Shown: in pieces, positions 19,396-39,344 of the stretch | Layout: each line of letters begins with the position of its first letter | Numbering within the stretch: the first letter of the stretch is position 1 | Assembly: GCA_903895695.1 (NCBI GenBank) | Contig: CAITUY010000047.1 | Location: 10,397-74,396, forward strand | From: an uncultured bacterium | Lineage (GTDB): Bacteria; Verrucomicrobiota; Kiritimatiellia; CAIKKV01; CAITUY01 | Direction: 5' to 3' | Length of the DNA: 64,000 nt | Position numbers and translations under genes: made by a program | The notes under the pieces: model-generated | The model's database searches: none | The model's input: the letters and a program-made list of their open reading frames with translations, nothing else | Told to the model about the DNA's origin: nothing

Positions 19396-20481
19396 TTATC
19401 GCTTCCGCGTCGTCGCCCCCTCAATGAACGCGGGCACCAACTCAACGGGCTTGCCGTGCAGACCGCCCAGCCGGTCCAGCACGCACTGCGCCAGGGCTTC
19501 ACCATGGGCGATAGGGTCCATCTCGACGCGGGTCAGCGGTTTGGAGAAGACCGGTCCGAGTCCCTTGTTAGCCCACGAAATAACCTGCACGTCTTCCGGA
19601 ATGCGAAGGCCGCGGGAGGCCATCGCGAGCAACGCTCCGCGGGCTGCAAAATCGTCGCCGAACCAGATCAGGTCGGGCAGCGTCGGCCCCGTCGCCAGCC
19701 AGCGCTCCACGGCCTCCAGAGCGCCGCGCTCCACCCGCTCCGGCGAGCCGTATCCGGGCAAGTCATTGAACAGAAGGTCATCGACAATCAGGCCGGCATT
19801 CCTCAGCGTGGGGCCGACGTCAAACGACGGCTTCGGATCCGTCACCTGGAGAACGCGGCGCACGCCGCACGCGAGACAATGATCGCGCAAGGCCAGCAGC
19901 ACAGCATCCCGACGCACCGCGACCGACTGCACGGCGTGCCGGGAACACCGGCTCTCGATCTGATTGAATTCGATAAAGGCGACCTCCCGCTCGGCCAGGA
20001 TGGGCTCCAGCAGAGACGGGTTGCCGTCGATCACGGCCAGCGAGACGGCATGCGTCAGCGCGGCGCGCGCTTTGGCCAGGGCCATGGTAGGTTCGACGCC
20101 GAGTTCCACGGTACTGACCAGGACGTTCGCGGCATGGAGCCGGTCAACCAGCGCGGCGCTCAACATGCTCTGGTAGTACATGCGCGCGCCGGCGATGCTC
20201 ATGTATAGCACATGCCCACGCCACGTCTTCAACTTGGTACTGCACACGGTGATGCCGGTGCGGGGACGGGGATTCAAAAGCCCCTCGCGGGTCAGGCGCT
20301 GGACCGCGTGGCGGGTCACGATTTCACTCACCTTGAGGGCCACCGCCATCTCCTCCAAATTCGGAAGCTTGGCGCCAACCTTGTATTGTCCCGTGATCAC
20401 GGCACGGCGCAATCCGTCCGTTACCTGGTCCGTCAGACTGGTTCGGCTTTGTTTCGACACTTCGAATGGCATGCTGTGCAT
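19396..20481 (-). CDS. AraR-like transcriptional regulator (GntR-type wHTH N-terminus + LacI/periplasmic-binding-protein-type sugar-binding C-terminus)
   Basis: N-terminal HTH TDGLRRAVITGQYKVGAKLPNLEEMAVALKVSEIVTRHAVQRLTREGLL, then a LacI-type ligand-binding fold. The six-frame ORF (to 20577) extends in-frame into a copy of the RHS leader repeat; the real start is probably Met33/Met36. Confidence 0.6.
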   Translation of the reverse strand: MHSMPFEVSKQSRTSLTDQVTDGLRRAVITGQYKVGAKLPNLEEMAVALKVSEIVTRHAVQRLTREGLLNPRPRTGITVCSTKLKTWRGHVLYMSIAGARMYYQSMLSAALVDRLHAANVLVSTVELGVEPTMALAKARAALTHAVSLAVIDGNPSLLEPILAEREVAFIEFNQIESRCSRHAVQSVAVRRDAVLLALRDHCLACGVRRVLQVTDPKPSFDVGPTLRNAGLIVDDLLFNDLPGYGSPERVERGALEAVERWLATGPTLPDLIWFGDDFAARGALLAMASRGLRIPEDVQVISWANKGLGPVFSKPLTRVEMDPIAHGEALAQCVLDRLGGLHGKPVELVPAFIEGATTRKR

Positions 20482-20580
20482 AGATCTAATTCCAGATTCG
20501 CACCCGTTGAAACGGGGGTATGCGGTTTTCGATCTACGCAAGGCCGTGCGGCCGAGCGGTGTGAGGTGGTAGGCCATGGT
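20479..20580 (-). repeat. truncated copy of the RHS-core 3' leader repeat (MAYHLTPLGRTALRRSKTAYPRFNGCESG…) with no attached CT domain
   Basis: ~90% nucleotide identity to the first ~90 nt of the ten cassette ORFs, including the conserved ctgaccATG start context; it diverges after the GCESG codons into the regulator gene. Confidence 0.7.
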
Positions 20581-20592
20581 TACTGCGTCAGG

Positions 20593-21072
20593 TCATTTGG
20601 CAATTGTCGAGACGCGAGGTTGAGTGTCGTAGCGGTGGCCAACCACGATCACAACATCGTCTGGCGTGCCACCCCGTCCGTCCCCTCCAACTGACATCAG
20701 CACAACTTCGCCGTTTCGTCTCACGCAGACAATGGGTCTATTCCAACCATCCACGAACCTATCGGTGTCGACCGTAACTGTCTTTAGAAGCACTGCTACC
20801 TCCTGAGTCCCCGTGACAACCGAGTGGAGCACATTCGTATGCGTTCCAAAAATATAGTCGAGATATTCCAGGTTGCGGACAGTCCGATAGTCCGCACCCT
20901 CAAGTCGCCCACCGACGAGTCGTGTGTACCGAATCGCGCACCACAGAACGACCGTTACCACCACGACCGCGACACTAATCGCTTTACCGAATGTCGCATT
21001 CCGTCCCTGTAGTATCGTCATTGCAGAGTCCACTGAAGCACGCTTCTCACGGGCCGCATCCATCTGACACAC
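20593..21072 (-). CDS. putative immunity protein (membrane-anchored) for cassette 21155..21913
   Basis: Small ORF immediately downstream of a toxin cassette on the same strand; one TM helix (ISVAVVVVTVVLWCAI); no homology recognised. Confidence 0.4.
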   Translation of the reverse strand: MCQMDAAREKRASVDSAMTILQGRNATFGKAISVAVVVVTVVLWCAIRYTRLVGGRLEGADYRTVRNLEYLDYIFGTHTNVLHSVVTGTQEVAVLLKTVTVDTDRFVDGWNRPIVCVRRNGEVVLMSVGGDGRGGTPDDVVIVVGHRYDTQPRVSTIAK

Positions 21073-21154
21073 TCACGGGCACCCCTGCTCGCGCCGATGT
21101 GACCGGCCCGACCACCCTGCATGTCAAGCCTCTGCGGCAACCTTCATACCGCGA

Positions 21155-21913
21155 CTAGAACGTCTTGTCACCGTTCGTGACTGGCCACCACGATTTCGTA
21201 AACGTCCGTGCCCCTCGATTGTCACGGTATTGGGTGACTTCGACTCCCCATTTCACCATCTTTATGACCGCCCCGCTTTCAGTACCCTTCGTACAAATAA
21301 CCTGGGTAAACATGTCAGACTTAAAATGAACGACCGGTGGATCGCGCAGTCGCACTATAACGTCCGGCCTCGGGAAATACTCATACAGGCCAGGCATATC
21401 GAGCATCATGTGATAGAATCGTTGGGGCTTGTCACTGTCGTCGTAGTAAGTGCCGCCGTGGAGGTGGTCTTTGTAGTATTCGCCCGGCGTCGGTGCTCGG
21501 CCATCGTCCCAAAACTGATAGTCGCGGGCATCCTGTTTGAAGTCGGGAAACTCACAGACGCAATCACATTTCTCATGATCTAGTTGGGCGCTGATCACGA
21601 CAACCACGATGCCCTTATAGGCGGCTGACCTTTCCAAGCCGTCTATTATCCGAATTGTAAACTTGGAGGCATTCACGCACTGTCTCAACTTGTCACTCCA
21701 ACACCCCAGCATGTCCACGCCGTTTTCACAGTCATTTTCCGCAAACTGATAACAGTTTCTGCCCCCTGCTTCCCCAATCGGATCGCGACTCACCCAGCGT
21801 CCTAGTCCTGGCGAGAAGAAACGGAAACCAGATTCGCACCCGCTGAGACGGGGGTATGCGGTTTTTGGGGTACGCAAGGTCGTGCGGCCGAGGGGTGTGA
21901 GGTGGTAGGACAT
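21155..21913 (-). CDS. orphan RHS C-terminal toxin cassette (RHS core tail + variable CT domain)
   Basis: N-terminus MSYHLTPLGRTTLRTPKTAYPRLSGCESGFRFFSPGLGRWVSRDPIGEAGGRNCYQF…DMLGCW matches the last YD repeat and DPxGL tail of RHS cores; unique 190-aa CT. Confidence 0.65.
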   Translation of the reverse strand: MSYHLTPLGRTTLRTPKTAYPRLSGCESGFRFFSPGLGRWVSRDPIGEAGGRNCYQFAENDCENGVDMLGCWSDKLRQCVNASKFTIRIIDGLERSAAYKGIVVVVISAQLDHEKCDCVCEFPDFKQDARDYQFWDDGRAPTPGEYYKDHLHGGTYYDDSDKPQRFYHMMLDMPGLYEYFPRPDVIVRLRDPPVVHFKSDMFTQVICTKGTESGAVIKMVKWGVEVTQYRDNRGARTFTKSWWPVTNGDKTF

Positions 21914-22108
21914 GGTCGACTATTCTCGTGACGGCAACTGATGGGATCGGGCTGTCCCTGCGACGCTTCGTTCAATCCCTATTCTCTATTCTTGGGCCTT
22001 CCAACCCCCGTACCCCTATCTTCTGTCTTCTCGGGCTGACACTGGCGCCCCATTATTCCACTTTGTCACCCTTGTCAGCACCCGACCCCACTCGCGGGCT
22101 ACACAGTT

Positions 22109-22444
22109 TCACACGAAGACCAACTGAAACAGAAGGAATGCAAGAAGAAGCACCGCAGGGCACAACGGGGATGCCTGCTCGCGGCGATACAGGGACATCA
22201 ACCACGCGAAACTTCCTGCAATGATCGAAACTATGGCGACAACATGGGCAGACGCTCCTGAGTGTATCTCCTTCTCAATGGTCAAGTGCAATTGATTTCG
22301 CTCCACAGAGGCGAGCGTAACGGATCTTGCGGCAAGCAAGGCACCGGCAGAGTCGTGACGTTTGCCTTCAATATCCACGATTATCGCGATCAGCAACAGA
22401 CTACAGGCCACCATGAACAACGGCTTCACGGGTGGGCACCTCAT
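22109..22444 (-). CDS. putative immunity protein (polytopic small membrane protein) for cassette 22441..23139
   Basis: ATGA start/stop overlap with the upstream toxin; 3 predicted TM segments. Confidence 0.45.
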   Translation of the reverse strand: MRCPPVKPLFMVACSLLLIAIIVDIEGKRHDSAGALLAARSVTLASVERNQLHLTIEKEIHSGASAHVVAIVSIIAGSFAWLMSLYRREQASPLCPAVLLLAFLLFQLVFV

Positions 22445-23139
22445 TGGCCAATAAGGGCGTCACCACATGCCTCCTGCGCAGAGACAGCACAGGCTTCACG
22501 TCCCACCCCAATAGGACAGTAATGGTGTGCGATCTCGTGGATCAGCAGAGATGCTAGTCCACTGCTCCCCAATTCCTTGCACTGACTTGCACATACGCCT
22601 ATGCCAAACCCAGGCAGCGTCCAAGTTGGGAAACCCAAAATACACGGAATCATCCAGTCTCCGTGGCACGTGATCGTATATCCCGGTATCCAATCGGTAG
22701 ATCCCCCTCCGCCTCCCGAGAAATCGTGACCGTGATCCTCAAACCATTTCCTGCATTTCCCCTTTGGTATGGCAGCATCGACGATTTCCGCCGCCTGCCT
22801 CACTTCCGGACAGCACTTACAGCCGCCAAATTCATGCAGACCTTCTGGGTCTGTCAGTACAGTCGGTTGATTATGCACGAAGAGATACCGCGGCTCCTGC
22901 GACTGATGCTTGATCCGTTCTCGATCCTCTCGCCGGATTCCCCTGCTTCGCGTTTGCAGAAGTGCCTCATCCCCAATTGGGTCGCTGCTCATCCACCGCC
23001 CCATTCCTGGCGAGAAGAAACGGAAACCAGATTCGCACCCGCTGAGTCGGGGGTAAGCGGTTTTCGGGCTACGTTCGTACGCGTACTCCGGCGAGGTACG
23101 CAAGACCGTGCGTCCGAGGGGTGACAGGTGGTAGGGCAT
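22441..23139 (-). CDS. orphan RHS C-terminal toxin cassette with HExxH (zinc metallopeptidase-like) CT domain
   Basis: Leader MPYHLSPLGRTVLR…(8-aa insertion SPEYAYER)…GCESGFRFFSPGMGRWMSSDPIGD…DPEGL; the CT contains LIHEIAHHYCP (HExxH). Confidence 0.6.
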   Translation of the reverse strand: MPYHLSPLGRTVLRTSPEYAYERSPKTAYPRLSGCESGFRFFSPGMGRWMSSDPIGDEALLQTRSRGIRREDRERIKHQSQEPRYLFVHNQPTVLTDPEGLHEFGGCKCCPEVRQAAEIVDAAIPKGKCRKWFEDHGHDFSGGGGGSTDWIPGYTITCHGDWMIPCILGFPTWTLPGFGIGVCASQCKELGSSGLASLLIHEIAHHYCPIGVGREACAVSAQEACGDALIGQ

Positions 23140-23240
23140 GGTCAGTGCGTCAGTTCATTTGCCGATTATCAAGATGCTGGGTGGTCGGCCCAGGTTCAAT
23201 TCGGGAAGCCCGTCCGGTCATAAATGGTCGGCAACAGTTT

Positions 23241-24062
23241 CTACTCGCCCGCCCCTTTGATCGGGGACTGCTGGCCCGCCTCCCAATCGCCTCCTATCTC
23301 TGGAGGCACTTCAAATGACTCTACCGTTTCATTTGTCGTACCAAGTAGACTGCGAAAACGGTCACGCAACGCGTTCATTCCACCTGTTGTTTGATTGAGG
23401 TGCTCAAGAACCAAAGGCCAACTTACTTTTTCCTCATCCGACTTCGTCCAGTTCGTCACGCCAAGATCGAACACCGAATTCACCGGGTCATACGGTTCGG
23501 TATAGGCACAGAACCAATTTGTCACTGATGTTTGCCGCAAGAACAAGAGATACACCTCCCCCGAAACCTTCAAATGAAGCGAACTTGGAGGGTTGGCAAT
23601 GAGGGCCCTCCGAATCTCATTAGTAACTCCGCGCCTCAGATAGAACATATTTATCGCCTCGCCATCGCGGGCGTTCTTGAGACCTTCGATCACGTCAATC
23701 CTGGCCCTACACACTTCAAACGGGTATCCACGTAGCGTTGGATATGTCAGGAATATGCACCCCCCCGTCGCGCCAAGCCGCGCAACCCTCCCCACGACAA
23801 CTTTGTCTGCCCTCCGCACAAGTGTCTCCGCACTCTCGCGTTGCTCACCCCTCGCAAGTGCATACGAGCCACCCACGCCGTAGCAGACTACCCCAATCAC
23901 GAATGATGCCACCATGTGTCTTAGGCTTGCCATTTCGTCTATCATCGTCCTTGTCACTCTGGCCACATAGACCTGCCGCATGCAGGAAGTCTGTTCGATG
24001 CTAATGATCAGTAAATGCTTCTTGTCACTTGAGTTGGGGAGTTGCCACTGCAGCAGTTCCAT
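23241..24062 (-). CDS. putative immunity protein for cassette 24008..24742 (start likely internal, ~23981 or 23945)
   Basis: Directly downstream of the toxin cassette; hydrophobic segment MVASFVIGVVCYGVGG; the called N-terminus overlaps the toxin's 3' end. Confidence 0.4.
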   Translation of the reverse strand: MELLQWQLPNSSDKKHLLIISIEQTSCMRQVYVARVTRTMIDEMASLRHMVASFVIGVVCYGVGGSYALARGEQRESAETLVRRADKVVVGRVARLGATGGCIFLTYPTLRGYPFEVCRARIDVIEGLKNARDGEAINMFYLRRGVTNEIRRALIANPPSSLHLKVSGEVYLLFLRQTSVTNWFCAYTEPYDPVNSVFDLGVTNWTKSDEEKVSWPLVLEHLNQTTGGMNALRDRFRSLLGTTNETVESFEVPPEIGGDWEAGQQSPIKGAGE

Positions 24063-24742
24063 CTCGCCATCAGTGAGCGGTGGATGACATCACCAGAGGG
24101 AGGCGGCAATATTGGATCTTCATTTACTACCCCAGTGTCTCCACCTGAAGGCGAACGTGGATCGTGTGGCCAGTTTGATGTATCAAGCCTATCGTAGTAG
24201 GCGACAGTACCCGTATAGAGCACGTATCCTTTGGAGCATGGCAACCCTCCCGGATCGCTAAAGGCCCATGTATCACGGGGAGGGTCGTCCATGCTCGCAT
24301 CGACGATAGACCACGCCTCCCAATAGTGTTGGTCGGGATCATTGATGGGGTGACCTTGGCAGTCGGTAATTGAAGACGTCATGGTCATCTCTTGAACGAC
24401 GGAACCCCATAGAGGCGAAGGACCTCGCACTTTCCACAACACTGACCACGAAAAGTGGCCACAGTCATCCGGAATGAACACGAGGTCATCCACCGAAAAG
24501 GACAACGAAGTCCCCCCGAGAATAGTCTGCTTACCCGTTCTATCGCACTTTTGCACACTATTGTTCTCGCAGATTGAGAACAGGTTGAGTCCACCTCTTT
24601 CCCCAATCGGATCTCGCGACGCCCACCGCCCGATCCCCGGCGAGAAGAAACGGAAACCAGATTCGCACCCGGTGAGACGGGGGTATGCGGTTTTCGATCT
24701 ACGCAAGGCCGTGCGTCCGAGGGGTGTCAGGGAGTAGGTCAT
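24008..24742 (-). CDS. orphan RHS C-terminal toxin cassette
   Basis: Leader MTYSLTPLGRTALRRSKTAYPRLTGCESGFRFFSPGIGRWASRDPIGERGGLNLFSI…; unique CT. Confidence 0.65.
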   Translation of the reverse strand: MTYSLTPLGRTALRRSKTAYPRLTGCESGFRFFSPGIGRWASRDPIGERGGLNLFSICENNSVQKCDRTGKQTILGGTSLSFSVDDLVFIPDDCGHFSWSVLWKVRGPSPLWGSVVQEMTMTSSITDCQGHPINDPDQHYWEAWSIVDASMDDPPRDTWAFSDPGGLPCSKGYVLYTGTVAYYDRLDTSNWPHDPRSPSGGDTGVVNEDPILPPPSGDVIHRSLMARWNCCSGNSPTQVTRSIY

Positions 24743-24757
24743 GGTCAGCGCGTCAGT

Positions 24758-25207
24758 TCATTCGTCAATTGTGGAAACATGCCCCTGTGGCTTCCGATCT
24801 CTCAGGTTGACGCTCATCAGATAATCCGTAATTGCGGGATTATCGCCACTCCGGGAGAACTCTTGGACTCGATCCCAATACCTCGATCCTTCTACTATCG
24901 CAAGAAGCGAACTAGCACGTTTCGACTTAGCTTCAATGAGTATCTGATAGACAGGGACAAGCAACAATGTTGCCGTCTCACGTTCACGTCGGTCTTTAGA
25001 ACGCAGTTTCGTCGTCAAATACCGAATTCCAGAATCGTTCACAAATGGGAGCACAAGTCTCGCGACTTCTGCCGCGTCAATCTCACCAGGAGACTTCCTC
25101 AAGGACCAGTAGTCATTCGCTTCTGACATGGCCTTGTCGTATCGGTGGGCCACACACCCTGTCATCACAATCCACAGAGGCAAGAGCAAGAACAGCGTCA
25201 TCTTCTT
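24758..25207 (-). CDS. putative immunity lipoprotein for cassette 25227..25889 (the six-frame ORF extends artefactually to 25546)
   Basis: Probable start MKKMTLFLLLPLWIVMTGC (lipobox LxxC) ~20 nt downstream of the toxin stop. Confidence 0.45.
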   Translation of the reverse strand, partial: KKMTLFLLLPLWIVMTGCVAHRYDKAMSEANDYWSLRKSPGEIDAAEVARLVLPFVNDSGIRYLTTKLRSKDRRERETATLLLVPVYQILIEAKSKRASSLLAIVEGSRYWDRVQEFSRSGDNPAITDYLMSVNLRDRKPQGHVSTIDE

Positions 25208-25226
25208 CATGGGGATTGGGTTCCTA

Positions 25227-25889
25227 CTAATTTGAATTAGTATCGTCCCAATCAGTTCCCAAGTCCTCGAACGGCGTACAGGTTTCGCCTTGGGGGCAAC
25301 ACTGGCTAGACTCACCCGTGGACTCAAAATGGTAGTACTGTTTGCCCCCTGGCCCTTTACCCAGGGAGACCTTAGTTTTGCGGTAGTGCCTCCAGAAGAA
25401 CCAATAACGGAAACTAATCCACATTTCTTTCGCAGGAGACATGCAGATGCATTGGTCCCAACCATACGGAATGCCAGGCCCGCCCGGCGAGATCTCCCCT
25501 CTGAATGATCTTGTCTTGCACTGGCCATCGCCCCCGCAAGTCGCACCCTCGCTTAAGCAGTACCGCTGAAGAGGAGCATTGTTACATGCACAACCGTTAT
25601 CCTGCATCACGAGGCCAAGCAGATCCCAACGAGATTCTCCATTGTTACTGAGAAAATCATAATCATTCGCCCCTCTGGAAACGGTCATGGCGTCAACCCG
25701 TTTGCGGACGCTCTGAGCCACAAATGCAAATTTGAAGAAAGTGTGCTCCCACATCGGATCCCGGCTGCACCAGCGACCCACGCCCGGCGAGAAGAAACGG
25801 AAACCAGATTCGCACCCGTTGAAACGGGGGTATGCGGTTTTCGCGGTACGCAAGGCCGTGCGTCCGAAGGGTGTGAGGGAGTAGCTCAT
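25227..25889 (-). CDS. orphan RHS C-terminal toxin cassette (Cys-rich CT)
   Basis: Leader MSYSLTPFGRTALRTAKTAYPRFNGCESGFRFFSPGVGRWCSRDPMWE…; CT rich in Cys/Gly (…GCACNN…CGGDGQCKT…QCICMSP…CCPQGETC). Confidence 0.6.
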   Translation of the reverse strand: MSYSLTPFGRTALRTAKTAYPRFNGCESGFRFFSPGVGRWCSRDPMWEHTFFKFAFVAQSVRKRVDAMTVSRGANDYDFLSNNGESRWDLLGLVMQDNGCACNNAPLQRYCLSEGATCGGDGQCKTRSFRGEISPGGPGIPYGWDQCICMSPAKEMWISFRYWFFWRHYRKTKVSLGKGPGGKQYYHFESTGESSQCCPQGETCTPFEDLGTDWDDTNSN

Positions 25890-25899
25890 GGTCAGCGCC

Positions 25900-26574
25900 C
25901 TACCAACTTCTCAACCACAGGTTCGATAGGAAATAGTCAGAGACGATCCCGCGTTGCGTGTAGTACACAGCCAAATACCAACCCTCCAATGCAGACGCCC
26001 CTCCCTCCGGATGACGGTTCTGAACGACATCCGCGAAACTCACGCATGCTTTGCCGATCCCCTTTTCCAGGCCATAGTCATCGGCATCAGGACCGAAGAT
26101 CGTCTTGATAGTCGACATACGCGTTCCAACACGCAGCGACTTACTGTCTAGTAGCGAAACACAGAATGCCAGCTTGTCGTGGCGGTTGCTGCATCCCAGG
26201 TACTGCACCTTCAGTATCTCCGCGCTGGTGTCGGCCTTCGTGAGGTGACCGTATACCTCGCCTAAGACGGGCGCCTTACTTACCGCCCTGACGGCATGTA
26301 TGCCTTCCGGACTTTGAACCGTGTCTTGACCCGCTGCATGGCGGGTGAGTGCCGCGCAACCAAAGCCAATCATAATCATGGCCGCAACTCCGCATGCGTC
26401 CAGCGCACACCGAAGTATCGTTGAGGCCAAGTGACCGTCACTATCTCGGTCAGTTGTCATCAGGCGTAGGTATCTGGTGTTTGGGCGTTTGAATGCAGGT
26501 GGCTCCGTATATGGTGGCAGGAAAGCCGGGGGGCTTCGGCATCTTTCTGCATATGGTGAACCATTGCTCTTCAC
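25900..26574 (-). CDS. putative immunity protein for cassette 26450..27235 (start likely internal, ~26460)
   Basis: Downstream partner ORF; signal/TM-like stretch ILRCALDACGVAAMIMIGFGCAAL. Confidence 0.4.
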   Translation of the reverse strand: MKSNGSPYAERCRSPPAFLPPYTEPPAFKRPNTRYLRLMTTDRDSDGHLASTILRCALDACGVAAMIMIGFGCAALTRHAAGQDTVQSPEGIHAVRAVSKAPVLGEVYGHLTKADTSAEILKVQYLGCSNRHDKLAFCVSLLDSKSLRVGTRMSTIKTIFGPDADDYGLEKGIGKACVSFADVVQNRHPEGGASALEGWYLAVYYTQRGIVSDYFLSNLWLRSW

Positions 26575-31151: not shown

Positions 31152-31174
31152 TTCCGTTGCGTTGCTGAATGTTA

Positions 31175-32220: not shown

Positions 32221-32436
32221 TCAACCCGGCGTCGGAGTTTGGCCCTTGGCCCGGTCGAATATCTCGTCCACCGTCTGCCCGTCGTAGAGGCGCCGGGAGA
32301 CATCCACGTAGTCGGTCGGTTCGCGGTGGATCAGGGTGAGAAACCGAAACGCACCTGTTGCACCCAAGGCCTTGTTGAGGACCTCAATGCCGCTCAGGCG
32401 CAGTTCGTTATCGGTCATGACTTGGCTTGTGCTCAT
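32221..32436 (-). CDS. small protein downstream of the PIN gene, possible antitoxin/partner
   Basis: 71 aa, 5 nt after the PIN-domain ORF on the same strand; no family recognised. Confidence 0.3.
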   Translation of the reverse strand: MSTSQVMTDNELRLSGIEVLNKALGATGAFRFLTLIHREPTDYVDVSRRLYDGQTVDEIFDRAKGQTPTPG

Positions 32437-32440
32437 ATCC

Positions 32441-32938
32441 TCACCATCTCTTCTGCACGTAGTCTACAGGATTAATGACCAGAAGCGCAACCGGCAAACG
32501 GCCAGCCTTGGACACGATCTCGTCATCACAGGTCACAAACCACGCTGCTTTCGCGTGTTCGGCAGCAGCAACGTGCAAGGCATCCTTGGCCGACAGCCCC
32601 GCCACGGCCTGAATCCGAGCCGCGGATATGCGAATGGGTTCTTCTGGGCCTATTCGGACGCGGCAGATTGCGGCAAGGCGGACGACTTCCTGTGCACGGT
32701 CAACGAAAGGACACACCCGGTTCTCGTCCTCGTGCATAAACGACCACGCCAATTCCACCTCACCGTTCTCGGCATCCTCGAAGATCTTCTCGCAGGCTTC
32801 CGCCTCCAAACGGATACGATGCTGCCGGGAGTCGTCAAACCCCCGCTGGAAGCAGTTGTAGTCGAGATAGATGAGTTCCGCCATGTCGAGTACCCCGTGC
32901 CGAACGTGGTTACGATAGTATGGACTCTTCCTGGTCAC
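32441..32938 (-). CDS. PIN-domain protein (VapC-like ribonuclease candidate); likely start MAELIYLDYN (~32881)
   Basis: N-terminal MAELIYLDYNCF… and acidic residues spaced as in PIN/VapC folds. Confidence 0.45.
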   Translation of the reverse strand: MTRKSPYYRNHVRHGVLDMAELIYLDYNCFQRGFDDSRQHRIRLEAEACEKIFEDAENGEVELAWSFMHEDENRVCPFVDRAQEVVRLAAICRVRIGPEEPIRISAARIQAVAGLSAKDALHVAAAEHAKAAWFVTCDDEIVSKAGRLPVALLVINPVDYVQKRW

Positions 32939-33896
32939 AAGCCTCTTTCTCCCTTGGATGGCACTTGCGGTGGGTCTCTTTGAGGTCGGTGATGGTGAGC
33001 TTGGCGTAGTGCTTGAGCGTCTCCAGCGACTCGTGGCCGAGCAGTTCCTTCACGTGGTACATGCCGGCCCCGGCCCGCAACAGCTCGGTCGTGCAACTGC
33101 GGCGGAAAGTGTGGGGCGTGACGTTGACGTCGATGCGGGCCTGTTCGGTCAGCCGGTGCACAAGTTTGAGGAAGACGCCGTACTTGACCCGCTCGCCCGC
33201 CGCGGTGACGAAGAGGGCCTGCTCGTCGCCCGTCGGGAATGCTGGCCTGACTCCTTTGACGTACCCTTCGAGGTAGTGCATGGCCGTGCGGCCGATCGGC
33301 ACCATGCGTTCCTTCTGGCCCTTGCCTTTGACGCGGGCCAGCCCGTGGGCGTAGTCGACGTCGCCCAGGTCCAGCCCCAGCAGTTCCGAGACCCGCGCCC
33401 CGCTCGAATAGACCAGTTCCAGCATGGCCCGGTTGCGGTAGCCCTCCGCCCCGTTGGTCGGCACCACGTCCAGCAGCCGCCGCACTTGCTCGTGGGTCAG
33501 CACGCTGCCCGGCAGGGTCTTGGGCTCCTTCACGTACTCGATGCCGTCGGACAACCGCGACTGGATATGGCCCTGCACGGCCAGGTACTTGAGGAACGAG
33601 CGCAGTTCCTGGACTTGCTTGTTGATGGTGCGGGGGTTGAGCGGCCGCCCCTTGCGGGTCCGCCGCCGGGACAAATGTCCCTGCCAGCGCTGGAGGTGGC
33701 TGGCCCGCAACAGGTCGGGCGAGTACACGCCCACCGTCACCCCGAGCCACTGCGCCCAGTTCCGCAGGTCGTTGTTGGCCTGCTTGCGCGTCCAGGCGCT
33801 GAAGTTGAGCGCGCCCAGGTGCCGCACGTATTCGTCCAGTAGTTCGAGGAAAGTCGTCATAGTCGCATCCTCACGATCCCGGTTTGCTCCGGGCAT
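32910..33896 (-). CDS. tyrosine site-specific recombinase (XerC/D-phage integrase family)
   Basis: C-terminal catalytic signature …VTPHTFRRSCTTELLRAGAGMYHVKELLGHESLETLKHYAKL (R…HxxR…Y); N-terminal SAM-like core-binding domain. Confidence 0.8.
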   Translation of the reverse strand: MPGANRDREDATMTTFLELLDEYVRHLGALNFSAWTRKQANNDLRNWAQWLGVTVGVYSPDLLRASHLQRWQGHLSRRRTRKGRPLNPRTINKQVQELRSFLKYLAVQGHIQSRLSDGIEYVKEPKTLPGSVLTHEQVRRLLDVVPTNGAEGYRNRAMLELVYSSGARVSELLGLDLGDVDYAHGLARVKGKGQKERMVPIGRTAMHYLEGYVKGVRPAFPTGDEQALFVTAAGERVKYGVFLKLVHRLTEQARIDVNVTPHTFRRSCTTELLRAGAGMYHVKELLGHESLETLKHYAKLTITDLKETHRKCHPREKEACDQEESILS

Positions 33897-34827
33897 GAAC
33901 CGCCTGCAATTCCGTGATCGTCAGGCGCAGGTACTGGGACAGGTGACTGAACGAGGCATGGCCGAGGAGCATCTGCAGGTCCACCGGGTGGGCGCCGCGG
34001 CGCAACATGTGCGTGGCGCAGGCCCGCCGCAAGCTGTGCGGCGTGATGCGCGTCTGCACGCCCGAGTCGCGTCCATGCCTCACGATGCCGAGCCGGATGG
34101 CCACATATCCGAGCGGCTTTCCATACTGCGTCACCCAGAGCTCAGGCGGCCTGCCGCCCGCGGCCGTCCTCTTCCCGACCTCGGCCTCGTACCGCCGCAG
34201 CCACTCCACCGCCTGGGCGCCCAGCGGCAGGACCCGCTCCCGCTCGCCCTTGCCCATCACGCGCACGGTCCCGTTCACCATGTCCACGTCCCGGACCATA
34301 AGCCGGGACAGTTCCTCGACGCGCATGCCCGTGCCGTAGGCCGTCTCCAGGATGGTCCGATCGCGCAGTCCCGTGTAGGTCGTGGTGTCCGGCGTCGCCA
34401 GCAGGCTCGTCATCTCCTCCTCGGTAGGCACCGGCATGATGGGCGACTGAATCTTGCGGATCACGATGCCCTCCGCCGGGTTGCAGAACACTTCCTGCGT
34501 CTGCTCCAGCCAGCGGAAGAACTGCTTGATGGCACGGATGAAAACCTCCACCGAGGCGGGCTTCCACTGCCGGTCCACCATGCCGGCGCGGTATTCCTCG
34601 ATGTCCGAGCGCGTCACGTCCATGGCCCGCACGATGCCCTTACCATCCAGGAACGCGCAGAACCGTTCCAGCGCCTGCGTATAGATCTCGACGGTCCGCC
34701 GGCTGTACCGCCGTGAGGCCACGCGCTCGGCGTAACGCCTGACGAGTACGGCTACACGACTACTGCTACGACTATGTGTTGCATCCATATGCGCTCCCCG
34801 CACCACTTTCGACCAGGTTATTGCCAT
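33871..34827 (-). CDS. tyrosine site-specific recombinase (second, overlapping the first)
   Basis: …ITPHSLRRACATHMLRRGAHPVDLQMLLGHASFSHLSQYLRLT; overlaps the downstream recombinase by ~25 nt, consistent with translational coupling. Confidence 0.8.
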   Translation of the reverse strand: MAITWSKVVRGAHMDATHSRSSSRVAVLVRRYAERVASRRYSRRTVEIYTQALERFCAFLDGKGIVRAMDVTRSDIEEYRAGMVDRQWKPASVEVFIRAIKQFFRWLEQTQEVFCNPAEGIVIRKIQSPIMPVPTEEEMTSLLATPDTTTYTGLRDRTILETAYGTGMRVEELSRLMVRDVDMVNGTVRVMGKGERERVLPLGAQAVEWLRRYEAEVGKRTAAGGRPPELWVTQYGKPLGYVAIRLGIVRHGRDSGVQTRITPHSLRRACATHMLRRGAHPVDLQMLLGHASFSHLSQYLRLTITELQAVHARSKPGS

Positions 34828-37147
34828 CCGCCTGCATTTGAGGCACTTGGACCGATTCCACGGGGTGGCCAGGTGCTGACCACCCTGTGACCACCCCCGC
34901 CGCTGCCATCGAGGTGGCCTGTCCGTCGTACGCCAGGCGGTAACGGTAGGTGAGCCCGACGCGCCCGGCCACGGTCAGGACGAACTCCATCTCGACCAAC
35001 TGCTTGAGGTAACGGCGCACGCGGAGATGGGCCCAGCCGGTGAACTCGCGGATCTCCCGGCGGGAGAACACCACGTCGCCGGGCACTTCCACGCCATCGC
35101 GCCCCTCCCGCCGCTGTTGCTCGATCCTGCCGGCCACCATGCGTTCGATGTGCATCAGCAGGTCCAGGCTCACCCGGTTGAGGTCGTCCAGGCTCTTGCC
35201 CAGGATCTCCCGCGCCAGCCCGTCGGCAACGGCCAGGTCCGCCGCTTCCACCTCGATGTAGTCCCGGCCCTCGTCCTGCCGGACCTGCTTCGACATCTGC
35301 CGCAGGAACGCCACGGCCCGGATCAGGTTCAGGTACTTAGGCTGGTCGCGCCGGCTCTGCAGTCGGTCGTCGCCGTAGCAGAGCTGTTCGGCGAACGGGT
35401 TGACCACCTTGACGGGTTTCAACAGCCGCTGGAAGTTGCGGTGTAACCGCAGCGTCGCCTCACGCCCCCCGCGCTCCTTCTCGCCATCGAGGGTTTGGCG
35501 CCTGCGTTGGCAGGCGAGGATCGCCCGGGTCTGCTCCCGGCTCTCGTCCACACTCGTTACGAAGAACCGACTGCGGGTCTCGGGGTCGGTCTCGGGATCG
35601 GTCGTTGTGATGAAGACCGCGGTCGGGCCTTCCACGCGGTTCACCGCGGTCGTGAGCTTGCCGGTGGCGAAGTCCTTGACGGTCACCTCGATCACCAGTT
35701 CCCCGGCCGAGATCAAGTTGCGGATCGCGTACGTGGCGTCCTCCGCCCCCGCCCCTTCCTCCAAGGCGAGGATCTTGTGCTTGAGGCTCTGCCGGGCCTT
35801 GTAGAAGAGCGCCTTACCGGACAGGCTCGTCAGCTTGACCGAGTCCTCCGGCGGACAGAACGCGAGCGTCGCGTCCTGCAGCGCCGACTTGCCGGCGCCC
35901 GAACTGCTTAGGATCAGCACGGACAGCGGATGGTCGGTCTTCCGGCTGACGGCGGCCAGGTAGCAGAGCAACTTGTTGACCTCCTCGCCCACGAGCCCGC
36001 ACGCGGCGTAGTCGGCGACGATACGTTCGATCAGGTCCGGGCTGCGCCCGAAGGCTTCCGCCTCCCGGCGCTCCTCCTCCGGGATGTCGACCGTCTCACC
36101 CGCGTCCGCGGCCGACGCAGACGGCACGTGGGTTTCGCAACAGCGGATCAGCCGCACCAGGTCCGCCTCGATAGCCTCGGTGGTCTCCTCGAAAAACCGG
36201 CACAGATCCTGGGCCAGCGTTTTGCGGGCCTTGGCCGAGTAGAAGTCGAGCGTGTCCACGTGCAGTCGGCCGGCGTGCTCTGTCCTGAGCGTCGCTCGCA
36301 GCCGCCTTGGTCCCTTGTCGATCCCGCGCAACTCATAGCGGCGGCGGTCGAGCCGCACGCGGAACCCGTCGGGTATGGGCTCAGTCGCCGAGTCCGGCCC
36401 GGCTGACGGCTGCCCGGTGTCGAATTCGGCCAGGGCCGCATCCACGAGCGCGGTGACGCGCGGGAGTCCGTCGCGCAGGAGGACGGCATTGAGCGGCTCG
36501 GCAAGCGGACAGGCCCGGATGGCGACCGGCAATCCCGAGAAGGTTTCCCGCAGTGAGTCGGCATTGACGGCCAGGCACGCGAGTCGCTGTACGCCGCTCG
36601 CGCGGATCGCCTGGCGGTCGCGCGCGGTGAGACGGCCCTCCGGCACGGCGACGGCGTTGGGATACCCCGCCTTCTGGAGCGTGAGAGCGTCGAGGATGTC
36701 CAGCGTCGCGAGCACCTCCCCATGGGTGCGGAACACGGGTGCGTTCCAGAGCCCCGTGGCGACGCCCGGCAGGTGGACCGCCTTCCCGGTCGCCATGCAA
36801 AGGCCCGCAAGCCCGATCGCCAAGCCCTCGACATCCGCCAGCGGGAAGACGACGCAGTCGCGGAACCGCTCCTTGCCGGACTCATCGAGGATGTTCATCG
36901 ACCTGAGTACGTCGCGGATGCCGCCCTGGCGTGGCAGCGTCCCGACAAGTTTCCCCGTGGCGCAGCCGATCCGGAACTGACCGGCCAGGTCGGAATCGTT
37001 CAGGCCATGGCGGGCAAGAAAGCCCGGCCCTTCCGGCTCCTTGGTCAGCGTCTCGTGGTAGAACCCCGCGACCTTCTCCCACAGGGCCGCCTGCTCACAA
37101 AGCGGACCTCCCTCCGGCCTTCGTGGCATGTCCGTCCTCCCGTTCAT
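34772..37147 (-). CDS. large P-loop NTPase, putative TOPRIM primase/replication-type protein of the integrative element (six-frame ORF extends to 37273)
   Basis: Walker A LSSSGAGKSALQDATL; N-terminal region with a possible TOPRIM-like E…DxD arrangement (ADVEG…DILDALTL); operonic with a Zn-ribbon protein and two tyrosine recombinases. Confidence 0.4.
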   Translation of the reverse strand: MNGRTDMPRRPEGGPLCEQAALWEKVAGFYHETLTKEPEGPGFLARHGLNDSDLAGQFRIGCATGKLVGTLPRQGGIRDVLRSMNILDESGKERFRDCVVFPLADVEGLAIGLAGLCMATGKAVHLPGVATGLWNAPVFRTHGEVLATLDILDALTLQKAGYPNAVAVPEGRLTARDRQAIRASGVQRLACLAVNADSLRETFSGLPVAIRACPLAEPLNAVLLRDGLPRVTALVDAALAEFDTGQPSAGPDSATEPIPDGFRVRLDRRRYELRGIDKGPRRLRATLRTEHAGRLHVDTLDFYSAKARKTLAQDLCRFFEETTEAIEADLVRLIRCCETHVPSASAADAGETVDIPEEERREAEAFGRSPDLIERIVADYAACGLVGEEVNKLLCYLAAVSRKTDHPLSVLILSSSGAGKSALQDATLAFCPPEDSVKLTSLSGKALFYKARQSLKHKILALEEGAGAEDATYAIRNLISAGELVIEVTVKDFATGKLTTAVNRVEGPTAVFITTTDPETDPETRSRFFVTSVDESREQTRAILACQRRRQTLDGEKERGGREATLRLHRNFQRLLKPVKVVNPFAEQLCYGDDRLQSRRDQPKYLNLIRAVAFLRQMSKQVRQDEGRDYIEVEAADLAVADGLAREILGKSLDDLNRVSLDLLMHIERMVAGRIEQQRREGRDGVEVPGDVVFSRREIREFTGWAHLRVRRYLKQLVEMEFVLTVAGRVGLTYRYRLAYDGQATSMAAAGVVTGWSAPGHPVESVQVPQMQADGNNLVESGAGSAYGCNT

Positions 37148-37157
37148 GTCGCCAACC

Positions 37158-37574
37158 CTAGGCGCGAATTTCCCAACGGGCCACGAAGTTTTGTAACGTA
37201 AGACCCACATCGCGCCAGACCCCACGCCAGTCGCGGATTCCCGCGATAACGACGTGTCGTAACGCAAAACCATCCAAGTCTCGGAACCTCACACCGACCG
37301 TGTTTTGACCGGCGCGATGAATTGGAAGCAGAATGTCCACCGTGAACGCCTTCCGCCTGTCCTGCCGCCAGTAGAACGGATGAAGCCGCCGCCAGGCCTG
37401 GCTGCGGTCGATGTCCTTCTTGAAGTGGTCGGGGTTCTTCCGCCGCCATTGCCGGCAGTTCTCCCGGTTACGCGCCCGCTGGCACACCCGACGCGGGCAG
37501 TACCGCTGGTGCCAGGCGTTGTGGGGTTCAGGCTGGAACAACTTCCGGCAATGCGGGCAGCGCAGCGGTTTCAT
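37158..37574 (-). CDS. small Zn-ribbon (CxxC…CxxxxC) DNA-binding-like protein
   Basis: MKPLRCPHCRKLF…YCPRRVC; basic; first gene of the element operon. Confidence 0.4.
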   Translation of the reverse strand: MKPLRCPHCRKLFQPEPHNAWHQRYCPRRVCQRARNRENCRQWRRKNPDHFKKDIDRSQAWRRLHPFYWRQDRRKAFTVDILLPIHRAGQNTVGVRFRDLDGFALRHVVIAGIRDWRGVWRDVGLTLQNFVARWEIRA

Positions 37575-37966
37575 GAGTCGACCTCCTTTGGCCCCGCGTC
37601 AGACGGAGCGGGGGAATCGCCATACCTTAGGGGGAAGTCAATACGACAGGAGCCGCTGCCGACGCGAGAGCGGCAATGGCGGGATTCGTCCGGACGAGAG
37701 GTAGGCAACGCCTATTCCGTCAGCCAGGCCACCAACCGAGCCGTAGACCCGGATGAGCCCTATGACCGCACCGGTAAATCGGGGGAGGAACAAAAGAAGG
37801 ATCATCCGTCCGACGCCGGCGTAGTCATCGAACTGTTACGACGAAGCCGACAAGAAACATCGCACGACGGAACCGGGGATTCCTACGACCGTAGCGCTGG
37901 AATCAAGGTCGTTTCCAGCAGGTTTAATTCGGAAACCGCGTGCGACGGCAATTCGGTCGACAGTAG

Positions 37967-38467
37967 TTAACGTCGCAGGCGATCTGCAAGGCGCGTTCTG
38001 ATGCTCTGCCATGTCTGCCGGTCCACGTTTCGCCTTGAGCCGGTTTCATCAATGGCGGTTAGTTCCGGGTGCCACACCGGACACATGATCCGAACGCCTT
38101 CGGGTGTGTTTGTGAAGTATAGATATGTGATTCTTAGTGAAGTGGCCCCATTGCTTGGTCCCACCCACGGAGCCTCGATCTTCTCGAATTGCGGACTGTT
38201 CGCTAGGGCACAGGAGAAAATCCACGTTCGATTCGTTGCAAGCGGGAGAAGGTCGGAAAGACTGGCGGGGCGGACGCCGTGCGCTTCTTCATACTGTCGG
38301 CAGAGTTCCCCTAAAGCCAGGGTATTCGCTGCGCAAAGTTGGTAGAGCGCGCCATGGGTGCTCCTCTCTCGCCGAATATACAGGCACTGCCCTATGGCGA
38401 ACCAGCACAGGACAGCAAACACAAAGACGGACAAGAGCGACTTGATGACGGACGATGGAGAAGGCAT
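37967..38467 (-). CDS. putative immunity protein, pseudopilin(GspG)-like, for cassette 38470..39270
   Basis: Starts 3 nt after the toxin stop; N-terminal TM LLSVFVFAVLCWFAIG; shares …Y..HG..P.SLSDL(L/M)P with 28557..29060. Confidence 0.4.
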   Translation of the reverse strand: MPSPSSVIKSLLSVFVFAVLCWFAIGQCLYIRRERSTHGALYQLCAANTLALGELCRQYEEAHGVRPASLSDLLPLATNRTWIFSCALANSPQFEKIEAPWVGPSNGATSLRITYLYFTNTPEGVRIMCPVWHPELTAIDETGSRRNVDRQTWQSIRTRLADRLRR

Positions 38468-38469
38468 CG

Positions 38470-39270
38470 CTATTGCCTCCTTCTGTCACGCCCTCCCCCA
38501 CCCGGCCAAGTCGGTCCCAAGCCGGAATTGCAGTATTTCTGGTCGCACGGCTTGCAGTCTGCATAGCGATCATCGGCCGGGACACTCCCGGAGCTGGGAA
38601 ATCCGTTGAACCCGGCCTTGGCAAAATCTATGGAATTAGCCACTTCCGGCCAGTCCGATGGCTGAAACGACTTCCAGGCGACGATAGCTGCCTCCATCTG
38701 CACTGTCGAGGCGTCGCACAACTTCGCCATCCATCCGAATAGAGCGTAGTTGACTGACCACTTCCAGTAGCAACTACCATTCACGGTCACGGACTCGGAG
38801 CACTTGCGGCCGAAGGGACACTGCGAAACGCCATCGGCACCTCGGATACGAGGATCGGCCCAGACCAGACTGGCCAGATCCCACCCACCGAATGCAAAGT
38901 CCGGGGACTGTGTCCAGTCCTTAAAGAACGGATCACAATTCGAAGCAGCACGTTTCGGGTCTGTCTGCTTCAGATCGTTGAAACGCTGTTCAACCTGCGT
39001 CTTCGATGCCTTCAATCCATCCGTAACGTCTGGCCCGCATTTCCAGCACGACTTGTTGAACCACCAATCCCACATGGTGGATAAACCGAAAGGGTCGTAC
39101 TTAGACAAAGGTTCGTTAAGCGCGAACCCGTATAGGTTGTAGTCGCGGTTAATCGTACGCCTGCGGTTATGCGCTCTGAATCCAAGTTCGCGGATGGGAT
39201 CACGACTCATCCATCTCCCGGTCCCTGGAGAGAAGAAAATGAGTCTATAATACGGAATATACGTTACCAT
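38470..39270 (-). CDS. orphan RHS C-terminal toxin cassette with degenerate/replaced 5' leader (Cys/Trp-rich CT)
   Basis: MVTYIPYYRLIFFSPGTGRWMSRDPIRELGFRAHNRRRTINRDYNLYGFALNEPLSKYDPFGLS… keeps the GRW.SRDP…NLYGF…DPxGL tail, but the first ~25 codons are replaced by an AT-rich sequence. Confidence 0.5.
   Translation of the reverse strand: MVTYIPYYRLIFFSPGTGRWMSRDPIRELGFRAHNRRRTINRDYNLYGFALNEPLSKYDPFGLSTMWDWWFNKSCWKCGPDVTDGLKASKTQVEQRFNDLKQTDPKRAASNCDPFFKDWTQSPDFAFGGWDLASLVWADPRIRGADGVSQCPFGRKCSESVTVNGSCYWKWSVNYALFGWMAKLCDASTVQMEAAIVAWKSFQPSDWPEVANSIDFAKAGFNGFPSSGSVPADDRYADCKPCDQKYCNSGLGPTWPGGGGRDRRRQ
39228..39270 (-). promoter_or_regulatory. AT-rich segment with sigma70-like -35/-10 (TTGAAT-N16-TATTAT on the minus strand) at the head of the array
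   Basis: Minus-strand sequence TTGAATGGTAACGTATATTCCGTATTATAGACTC is ~30% GC in a ~65% GC background. Speculative; promoter consensus in this lineage is unknown. Confidence 0.2.
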
Positions 39271-39344
39271 TCAAGAAGAATGTGTCGTCCAGGAATGGCG
39301 CGTCCCCCTATCGCGATCCGTCTGGCAGGTGGTGCCACCGGCGA

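Follow-up and report, generated by a model that had tools for sequence, protein, structure and literature searches.

We analysed a stretch of 64,000 nt from the genome of an uncultured bacterium of the Verrucomicrobiota (class Kiritimatiellia; contig CAITUY010000047.1, positions 10,397 to 74,396), which we call the window and which covers 64 kb of a 97,957-nt contig. At 20.49-39.27 kb of the window lies an island of Rhs-type toxin modules, set inside a cluster of glycan-degradation genes on the same strand. Our results suggest, with a probability of roughly 0.5, that this is a polymorphic-toxin island which descends from a locus with a main rhs gene and orphan modules and which has lost the rhs shell, rather than a system that works independently of a shell. 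This interpretation is carried by the absence of shell sequence from the window, by a module (m11) that most likely is the remnant of a main gene, and by the rhs genes and stub found at the corresponding place in related loci.

All credible genes of the window are on the minus strand. The modules of the island are the following, from the 5' to the 3' end of the array:

m11, 38470-39270, minus strand: about 8 codons of main-type core, the tip FFSPGTGRWMSRDP...YDPFGL and a unique C-terminal domain; no leader; matches profile positions 32-76 of TIGR03696.
m11 immunity candidate, 37967-38467, minus strand: 166 amino acids (aa) with an N-terminal transmembrane segment, starting 3 nt after the m11 stop codon; no Pfam match.
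m10, 30909-31822, minus strand: leader-tip-toxin gene 31175-31822; downstream open reading frame (ORF) with a probable start at 31151.
m09, 29799-30847, minus strand: toxin 30134-30847; downstream ORF 29799-30137, GTGA overlap.
m08, 28557-29814, minus strand: toxin 29041-29814; downstream ORF with a probable start at 28982.
m07, 27297-28492, minus strand: toxin 27740-28492; lipoprotein-like ORF 27297-27743, ATGA overlap.
m06, 25900-27235, minus strand: toxin 26450-27235; downstream ORF with a probable start at 26430 or 26379.
m05, 24758-25889, minus strand: toxin 25227-25889; lipoprotein-like ORF with a probable start at 25210.
m04, 23241-24742, minus strand: toxin 24008-24742; downstream ORF with a probable start at 23981.
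m03, 22109-23139, minus strand: toxin 22441-23139 with a 9-codon insert in the leader; membrane ORF 22109-22444, ATGA overlap.
m02, 20593-21913, minus strand: toxin 21155-21913; downstream ORF 20593-21072.
m01, 20492-20577, minus strand: solo 5' leader, 97.7% identical to nt 1-86 of the consensus.

The island thus holds nine complete cassettes of an Rhs-tip toxin and a small ORF, one solo leader and the leaderless module m11; with the m11 pair, there are ten pairs of the toxin/immunity type. A direct repeat of ~105-200 nt is found in 10 copies on the minus strand between 20492 and 31957, and in the minus-strand alignment each copy begins a few bases before an ATG. Nine of these copies, with their ATG codons at 21913, 23139, 24742, 25889, 27235, 28492, 29814, 30847 and 31822, open ORFs of 215-261 aa, all of them intact. 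The nine ORFs are alike only over their first ~70 residues, with the common N-terminus MxYHLTPLGRTALRRSKTAYPRxxGCESGFRFFSPGxGRWxSRDPIGE..N.Y.F..N.....D..GL, and then continue into unique C-terminal domains of 150-200 aa. The common part is a leader which contains a PRFxG-x-ESG motif and the tip RFFSPGxGRWxSRDP...DxxGL, and both Asp motifs of the autoproteolytic tip are kept in most modules.

The profile TIGR03696 (RHS repeat-associated core domain) matches all 10 modules tested with E values from 2e-12 to 5e-5, and in seven of the 10 the score is above the curated cut-off of 32.5 bits. These matches are limited to profile positions ~32-76 of 76 and lie at module residues ~27-71. When the modules are compared with the PDB by phmmer, the same residues align with the last ~45 residues of YenC2, TccC3, RHS2 and an Rhs protein of a type VI secretion system (T6SS). 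Judged by these alignments, the modules are Rhs modules. Downstream of each module there is a small ORF. In four cases it overlaps or abuts the toxin gene's stop codon, and several of these ORFs have lipoprotein or transmembrane N-termini. Pfam gave no family match for any C-terminal domain or downstream ORF, and a sequence search of the PDB gave no meaningful match for the C-terminal domains tested. In the toxin of m03 a HEIAHH motif can be seen by eye, and its single-sequence AlphaFold model, with a predicted local distance difference test score (pLDDT) of 39, is too poor to use. One protein from a public collection, P0004, is the m08 protein with an upstream start.

The window contains no recognisable shell. 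The loose YD motif [YFW].[YFW]D..[GN] has 0 occurrences in the six-frame translation of the whole 64 kb. In Pfam scans that covered the 10 modules with their 10 downstream ORFs, 19 large ORFs of the flanks and the other small ORFs, no RHS_repeat, YD-shell, PAAR, VgrG, Hcp or type VII secretion system family was detected. The initial annotation had stated that no parental rhs gene, PAAR, VgrG or other known delivery gene lies in the window, and these searches bear it out.

What is left of the parental gene is most likely m11, which would then be an rhs remnant cut ~8 codons before the tip. Its stretch TYIPYY-RLI-FFSPGTGRWMSRDP, in which TYIPYY is residues 3-8, aligns with TPICYY-GFR-FFSPGTGRWMSRDP of P0096, a protein that is core-like upstream of its tip, and by this alignment the m11 tip is of the main type and not of the leader type. 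The stub begins 75 nt after the neighbouring glycoside-hydrolase gene and occupies the place that is taken by the Rhs C-terminus in the related loci L007 and L012 and by a stub in L014. We also considered an island bounded by the two halves of one leader, with nt 1-86 in m01 and nt 93 onward in m11, which would correspond to a single site-specific integration. This idea is weakened because the main-type tip of m11 reaches ~8 codons further 5'.

The related loci were reached through the contigs of distant leader proteins and through the closest homologues of Rep, a primase-like protein of a recombinase/primase element inside the array. L013 is the same sequence as L012, and L014 is the NCBI metagenome-assembled genome GCA_964404035.1. 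The backbone of the element, which consists of Zn-ribbon, Rep and two integrase genes (~37551-32950), has 74.7-80% nucleotide identity to L007, L012/L013 and L014, and all four backbone genes are intact in the loci sharing it. In L007, L012 and L014 the element sits between the first toxin/immunity pair and the leader-bearing cassettes. At the 5' end of L007, an Rhs protein is called over 1078 aa and is cut by the end of the locus; it has the repeats YEYDAIG...YEYDPYG and the tip GFRFFHPGIGRW (...ETGLHYYGFRFFHPGIGRW). A BamE-like ORF follows, then the Zn-ribbon, Rep and the two integrases, a 491-aa cargo, and in the 3' part an MGYY... cassette and an MGYHL... cassette with an ankyrin ORF. L012 carries an Rhs protein of at least 1073 aa with 12 YD motifs, followed by a 181-aa ORF, an insertion sequence, the backbone and three cassettes. 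Its flanks, with AAA_22 and a protein kinase, are unlike those in the window, and the block therefore occupies different genomic contexts. L014 starts with a 315-aa stub (two YD repeats, tip and toxin) and continues with the backbone, toxin-antitoxin genes, a solo leader and a full leader. The suggestion in the initial annotation that a parental rhs gene may never have been present, or may not be needed, is not supported, in view of the YD-repeat Rhs proteins 5' of the same element in L007 and L012, the stub in L014 and the main-type tip of m11.

The initial annotation had taken the array as continuous and had overlooked the 5.7-kb block at 32221-37970, which separates m11 from m10 and contains the 5-kb element together with a PIN toxin-antitoxin pair:

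37158-37574, minus strand: Cys-rich Zn-ribbon-like protein of 138 aa, the first backbone gene; L007 (165 aa) and L014 have homologues in the corresponding position.
34772-37273, minus strand: primase-like Rep of 833 aa, with weak DNAG_N/dnaG matches, a DnaG-like N-terminal region and a P-loop motif.
33871-34827, minus strand: XerD-like tyrosine recombinase of 318 aa (Phage_integrase 8.7e-35; TIGR02225 198.5 bits, cut-off 329.6).
32910-33896, minus strand: XerC-like tyrosine recombinase of 328 aa (Phage_integrase 1.7e-37; TIGR02224 218.6 bits, cut-off 335).
32221-32938, minus strand: PIN toxin-antitoxin pair, accessory cargo, with PIN at 32441-32938 (9.7e-6) and a 71-aa partner at 32221-32436.

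The 138-aa protein has no Pfam or NCBIfam match. The nucleotide homology of the backbone to its relatives ends at ~32944-32950, near the end of the XerC-like gene, and the relatives carry different cargo at the position of the PIN pair. The XerC/D-like pair is directly 5' of the co-directional low-GC cassettes m10-m02. Rep has 988 homologues, the closest of which (68-71% aa identity) are those in L007, L012 and L014, and its relatives carry PF27228 plus Toprim/primase domains. This distribution suggests that Rep belongs to a small mobile element of wide occurrence, with a paired XerC/D-like recombinase in the four loci described here. A brief literature search found no description of such a Rep/XerC-D element. 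The Rep homologues listed (P0151-P0270) have ~47-71% identity, apart from one fragment that is 100% identical. Their source names are diverse, including Verrucomicrobiota, KSB3 and Fermentibacteria, and many are on contigs of 4-8 kb. The sequence GGTGCGAATCT was likened, by eye, to the XerC arm of the E. coli dif site, and we discarded it as the would-be XerD arm does not match.

The leader which opens the nine cassettes is ~71 aa long and starts with an ATG that is conserved in 10 of 10 copies. The mean pairwise nucleotide identity among the leaders is 0.85 over nt 1-48, 0.95 over nt 49-105 and 0.63 over nt 106-150. Codons 17-35 include 16 that encode the same amino acid in all copies, of which only 4 have synonymous variants, whereas such variants are present in 6 of the 7 invariant codons among codons 36-50. 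The first 105 nt of the leader are homogenised at the DNA level among the nine copies. When nt 49-100 are compared with L007, we count by eye two synonymous differences across the conserved codons.

By eye, the leader appears to be a compressed copy of the whole Rhs-associated core, including a remnant of the last YD repeat. In the comparison with the main genes of L007, L012 and L014, M-x-YHLTPLG corresponds to the last YD repeat (YEYDPYG), and KTAYPRFNG-CESGF corresponds to FRFSTKYLD-GETGL-HYYGF with two short deletions, after which the tip follows. For the N-terminal part of the leader we infer this correspondence, because HMMER aligns the leader only from residue ~27. Between the L007 main tip and the orphan leaders the identity is ~80% over ~60 nt; runs of identical bases are ≤9 nt long, and upstream of codon G29 nothing is shared. 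The leader is therefore not a long homology arm common with the main gene, as the similarity to L007 is short and starts only at G29.

For a view of the wider family, we searched exhaustively with a profile of the first 51 leader residues, which gave 863 clusters at E≤1e-3; the statistics given here are for the best 150 of the 863 cluster representatives. Most of these proteins are short (≤330 aa in 141 of 150) and have the tip inside their first 100 residues (125 of 132). The start M-[GASPT]-[YF] is found in 72 of the 150, and other leader subfamilies keep their own conserved N-termini, for example MYLREK... and MVALA.... The middle of the leader varies as a protein does, and the start and the KTAYPR..G.ESG.R motifs are preserved. 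From the conserved starts and the short lengths across clusters it follows that short leader-tip-toxin proteins form a large family in which the start codon is conserved. The own start codons of the modules, already pointed out in the initial annotation, are thus conserved far outside this genome. Among the best 150 matches, leader positions 1-24 are covered by no long protein; in P0034, P0062 and P0107 the match starts at position 25 or further on. Two candidates for relatives of the leader profile, P0014 and P0070, turned out to be unrelated repeat proteins.

Outside the window the leader itself is rarely met. It is absent, both as a DNA pattern and as peptides, from 185,579 representative (GTDB) genomes and is absent from the viral contigs searched. 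In JGI metagenomes there are three true leader loci (L003-L005), all of them short contigs with the same kind of tandem cassettes. L006 proved to be a false positive, with the match in the antisense frame of a pheS-like gene. In proteins from other samples, parts of the cassettes are found in new combinations: in P0001 an m05-type leader and the m07 tip are followed by a different toxin, in P0002 another leader variant stands before the m04 toxin, and P0003 combines the leader of P0002 with another toxin. These mosaics indicate that the cassettes recombine with each other in nature.

There are several further observations on leaders, tips and downstream ORFs. A 'type B' block of ~90 nt stands directly 5' of the ATGs at 21913 and 28492, and is also seen at 797-891 in L003 and at 579-660 and 1957-2045 in L004. 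A 'type A' block of ~35 nt (CAATTG..AATGAACTGACGC..TGACC-ATG) precedes m01, m03, m04 and L014-2449. These blocks could be promoters or cassette 3' ends; a sigma-70 scan found nothing there, and over the whole array sigma-70-like promoters are no commoner than in shuffled sequences (5 vs 6.5 ± 2.1). Solo leaders without a tip or toxin are m01, L014 2449-2505 (ending at ~nt 57) and L014 8762-8850 (ending at ~nt 88), and after the last of these an NTP_transf_2/HEPN pair comes next. The tips of m03, m05, the L007 main gene, P0278 and P0003 have inserts of 25-60 aa between RDP and DxxGL. Two long Rhs fragments, P0034 (~440-520) and P0062 (~330-410), have tandem double tips, in which RYYHPxLGRW..RDPL is followed after ~20 aa by GYGYRFYSPGLGRW...GL. 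The downstream ORFs of m02 (20593-21072) and m08 (28557-28982) have a transmembrane segment, and their C-terminal DGWNRP.../DPWGSPF...GTEDD motif is, by eye, similar to the pseudopilin GspG domain; Pfam gives nothing significant (T2SSM, E = 0.044).

How such proteins might leave the cell was approached through the full-length relatives. In the precomputed Pfam annotation of the 120 closest relatives of the L012 Rhs protein, the recurring domains are RHS_repeat and TEN_YD-shell, a few proteins have an extra toxin-like domain, and PAAR is found in 0 of the 120. Likewise, the PAAR motif is missing from 13 Rhs N-termini from long contigs, in which no signal peptide could be seen by eye either. The named sources of the Rhs relatives are mostly Verrucomicrobiota, Lacunisphaera, Kiritimatiellia, Lentisphaeria/Victivallales and Phycisphaerae, with some Desulfobacterota and Bacteroidales as minor ones. 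Bacteria of the Akkermansia type within the Planctomycetes-Verrucomicrobia-Chlamydiae (PVC) group carry 5-18 Rhs/WapA-type genes per genome, the function of which is undefined (PMC8920140). In L015, no T6SS gene is present within 10 kb 5' of the Rhs gene. The same region of this 123-kb contig (1-9715) encodes two ~680-aa glycine-rich proteins, for which we predict by eye a beta-helical fold and signal peptides, and L015 also holds an ORF that resembles a frameshifted N-terminal part of the Rhs protein itself. When the initial annotation spoke of an export route still to be found, this was a fair remark for the lineage, whose closest full-length Rhs proteins lack PAAR. It does not follow from this that the cassettes act without a shell.

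Loss of the shell from a main-plus-orphan locus suggests the following course of events. The parental rhs gene would have been trimmed to a stub at a point ~8 codons ahead of its tip, through a deletion in place or in the course of a movement of the block. Toxins from the locus in the window could then no longer be enclosed in a shell and would probably not be deliverable as such. Selection may keep the immunity genes, which would guard against the Rhs toxins of relatives, and the conserved ATG may serve to keep the downstream ORFs, which often overlap (ATGA/GTGA), translated. The island would also be a store of intact toxin cassettes, which might be reshuffled, or re-attached to an intact rhs gene elsewhere, by recombination through the tip or the homogenised 105-nt leader.

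Several points weigh against this interpretation. Our data cover the 64 kb of the window, and an intact rhs gene may be present on the other 34 kb of the contig or elsewhere in the genome. Nine intact toxin ORFs and an ATG which is conserved across diverged clusters are more than a passive relic needs, and they also fit translated, functional small proteins. The labels 'toxin' and 'immunity' are taken from architecture and position only. Re-attachment by homologous recombination looks inefficient, because the L007 tip and the leaders are ~80% identical with runs of ≤9 nt. The four loci that share the element are not independent observations, as they may trace to one ancestral insertion. Finally, deletion of the gene in place and transplantation of a block without rhs are not distinguished by the data.

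We regard it as possible, though unlikely, that the island is a recombinase-driven cassette platform of the kind seen in integrons or in systems of acquired interbacterial defence associated with recombinases (rAID). The XerD/XerC-like pair would move cassettes of toxin and immunity gene at the leader/tip junction, new toxins would be grafted onto the Rhs tip while the displaced toxin gets an ATG leader, and the array would be an active acquisition system and not a relic. The recombinase pair is indeed placed directly 5' of a co-directional array of lower GC with cassettes separated by repeats, which are hallmarks of rAID-1 (10.1101/471110). Despite their differing flanks, L007, L012 and L014 have its element in the same place inside the locus, with an intact backbone, and the leader is conserved in nucleotide sequence even against L007. 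Three breakpoints lie close together at leader nt 86-90: m01 stops after CTGG (nt 86), L014-8762 at ~nt 88, and L004b changes to the unrelated tip RYYSPQTGRW after nt 90. However, the third solo leader (L014-2449) ends at ~nt 57, and the junctions in P0002 and P0003 come after RDPI, as is the case for homologous exchange anywhere in the conserved stretch. Neither an inverted-repeat core site nor an attC-like hairpin can be defined. The sole hairpin, ACCGGGT-GCGA-ATCTGGT with a T-tract, was picked up by a terminator scan in three leader copies and was dropped: its consensus energy is -2.4 kcal/mol and it has no covariation, with 55-345 of 500 shuffles reaching the observed values in a test on 23 diverged copies. 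Furthermore, with m11 being a main-type stub, the island does not lie between two halves of one site. The Rep family with its 988 homologues is very widespread, L009 is a 10-kb array that has a DDE transposase and no recombinase in view, and models of integron integrases reach 82-83 bits against a cut-off of 265 bits.

A second alternative, which we consider quite improbable, is that the leader-tip-toxin proteins are stand-alone small effectors. They would be made from their own ATG and would be exported by some route, or be loaded in trans into an Rhs shell encoded at another place, with the N-terminal ~70 aa as a targeting or docking part. As a precedent, Tc toxins have a cocoon that is split between TcB and TcC. 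The 863 clusters of mostly short proteins, with the tip near the N-terminus and with conserved starts also in other subfamilies, agree with this proposal, and so do the protein-like variation of the mid-leader between the preserved start and KTAYPR..G.ESG.R and the retention of both autoproteolytic Asp motifs in most modules. Orphan modules of Salmonella, by comparison, are usually without initiation signals (PMC3967940). Nevertheless, the conserved start is equally explained by the need to keep overlapping downstream immunity ORFs translated, and gene callers will yield short proteins from any orphan that has an in-frame ATG. The modules keep just the last ~45 residues of the shell, and no encapsulation or export without a shell is known. 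The leader sequence has no signal peptide or known secretion tag. Moreover, all arrays of relatives whose 5' end can be seen have a YD-repeat gene, or its stub, there.

A conventional arrangement, in which an intact parental rhs on the remaining 34 kb or elsewhere uses the cassettes by homologous recombination, is very unlikely: although the window is only 64 kb of the 97,957-nt contig, PVC bacteria of the Akkermansia type have many Rhs/WapA-type genes (5-18 per genome, PMC8920140) and full-length Rhs relatives are abundant in related metagenomes, a main gene normally, and in L007 and L012, lies immediately 5' of the first C-terminal toxin region, where we find a stub and then 24.6 kb of glycan genes, the leader pattern is missing from the 185,579 representative genomes, and none of the long proteins among the best 150 matches carries leader positions 1-24.

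The data also allow a more speculative proposal, a 'Rhs toxin integron', which we regard as improbable. Here a mobile element with XerC/D-like recombinases and Rep would use the Rhs tip/leader junction to graft cassettes onto shells and would leave behind toxins with an ATG leader. The hundreds of leader-tip-toxin clusters, whose named members are mostly from the PVC group, would be its footprint. The leader-tip-toxin proteins could also be cargo that is loaded in trans into Rhs shells without PAAR.

In the flanks the G+C content is 0.63-0.70, and the element, at 0.66-0.70, is host-like; it falls to 0.53-0.59 over 20-33 kb and to 0.57 at 38-39 kb. The low G+C content and the interrupted glycan-degradation cluster point to a foreign, island-like character of the array. 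The flanks, 24.6 kb on the 5' side and 19.4 kb on the 3' side, belong to the same cluster. Pfam families found in the window include GH2, GH95, GH106-like and GHL10-like glycoside hydrolases, BNR sialidase-like and heparinase-like proteins, an SASA esterase, GDPD and beta-helix proteins, and besides these a GntR/periplasmic-binding regulator, the two tyrosine recombinases, the PIN protein and the primase-like protein. The genes next to the island are:

39345-40880, minus strand: GHL10-like gene, the 5' boundary of the array.
19396-20481, minus strand: regulator with a GntR helix-turn-helix and a periplasmic-binding domain (Pfam GntR 1.8e-12, Peripla_BP_3 1.7e-14), part of the host flank and outside the island.

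These are the boundaries given in the initial annotation, and both neighbours stand, but the regulator gene begins at 20481 and not at 20577. Its extension to 20577 is an artificial product of the solo leader m01, which stops after ...GCGAATCTGG and then continues in frame into the regulator; the source record starts the regulator at 20481. The regulator was found only in its island-bearing form, and no empty site was found: every other assembly of the locus, from several samples, is 100% identical to the window, including the m11 junction base for base. Beside the 3' end of the island, at 18990-19374 on the minus strand, two overlapping frames match the ends of Pectate_lyase22/oligogalacturonate lyase (profile 16-59 and 319-383), which looks like a gene of ~390 aa shrunk to ~120 codons by an internal deletion. 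Four very large flank ORFs on the minus strand, 45972-51929 (1985 aa), 14305-18993 (1562 aa), 60678-63977 (1099 aa) and 3521-6868 (1115 aa), have no or marginal Pfam matches; those of the 1985-aa ORF are to Gly_rich_2, G8 and Flg_new_2, and the 1099-aa ORF has none. A tRNA or tmRNA origin of the conserved leader was rejected, as ARAGORN finds no such gene in the window. Rfam models run over 19-41 kb gave just two matches at chance level and no known RNA family.

The diversification of Rhs toxins is known mainly from enterobacteria, in which a T6SS-delivered main gene and silent orphans undergo recombination over a long homologous core. New in our case are orphans that form complete small genes of their own, whose start is conserved and whose short leader is homogenised, found in uncultured gut bacteria with closest named relatives of the PVC type, a XerC/D-like element at the boundary between main gene and orphans, shells without PAAR, and a parental gene reduced to a stub. 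If the recombinases do move the cassettes, the island would be a second, independent recombinase-associated platform for interbacterial toxins and immunity besides the rAID-1 of Bacteroidales, and would make the construction of such arrays open to test. If they do not, it is a clear case of an Rhs island that sheds its delivery gene and keeps ten intact toxin/immunity pairs. Loss of the shell with retention of the pairs bears on the idea that immunity, and not attack, maintains such arrays.

A comparison with known systems shows partial likenesses to each of them. With the Tc toxin TcB/TcC and the PAAR-Rhs proteins of T6SS (PDB 4igl, 4o9x, 7q97), the island has in common a module tip that aligns with their C-terminal autoproteolytic end, whereas the shell, the N-terminal plug and the PAAR or TcA partner are absent from the window. 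As in integrons, a tyrosine recombinase lies by a co-directional array of promoter-poor cassettes which are split by a repeated element. In contrast to integrons, TIGR02249 scores 82-83 bits against a cut-off of 265, no attC-like folded site was found, and each cassette consists of two genes with their own ATG leader.

Gut bacteria gain protection from arrays of orphan immunity genes (10.1101/471110; PMC12247911). The rAID-1 arrays of Bacteroidales resemble the island in having a XerD-family recombinase 5' of co-directional short genes, a skewed GC content and a repeat between the genes (10.1101/471110; PMC12247911), and also in the gut metagenome setting and in the presumed benefit, immunity to Rhs-type toxins. 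The differences are that in the window the toxin domains are intact and have an Rhs tip, the repeat is coding, there are two recombinases and a primase-like Rep and not one recombinase, and the genome is high-GC with named Rhs and Rep relatives of PVC type and not of Bacteroidales. The strict definition of rAID-1 comprises a recombinase >44% identical to BF9343_RS08045, a Bacteroidales host and orphan immunity genes without intact toxins. Strict membership of the array in rAID-1 is unlikely, because its toxin ORFs are intact and its named relatives are of PVC type.

In enterobacteria, orphan rhs modules are displaced fragments which recombine with the main gene, and in Salmonella the main gene and the orphan have 522 bp in common at 95% identity (PMC3967940). 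The window differs in that there is no YD-repeat rhs directly 5' of the array, the stub m11 being all that is left, while such a gene is met in L007 and L012. Its orphans have a conserved ATG and N-terminus, whereas those of Salmonella are usually without initiation signals, and the sequence they have in common is a 105-nt leader which is not shared with the main gene of the relatives. A XerC/D-like and primase element is embedded in the array, and the Rhs proteins of the relatives are without PAAR. The likeness to the rhs genes and orphans of the Salmonella Typhimurium STM0291/STM0292 type lies in the module itself, a fragment of the core end with a variable toxin and a small gene, arranged in tandem and co-directional. 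It extends to the relatives of the window, in which the full rhs gene is directly 5', and to the mosaics, which point to recombination of the cassettes.

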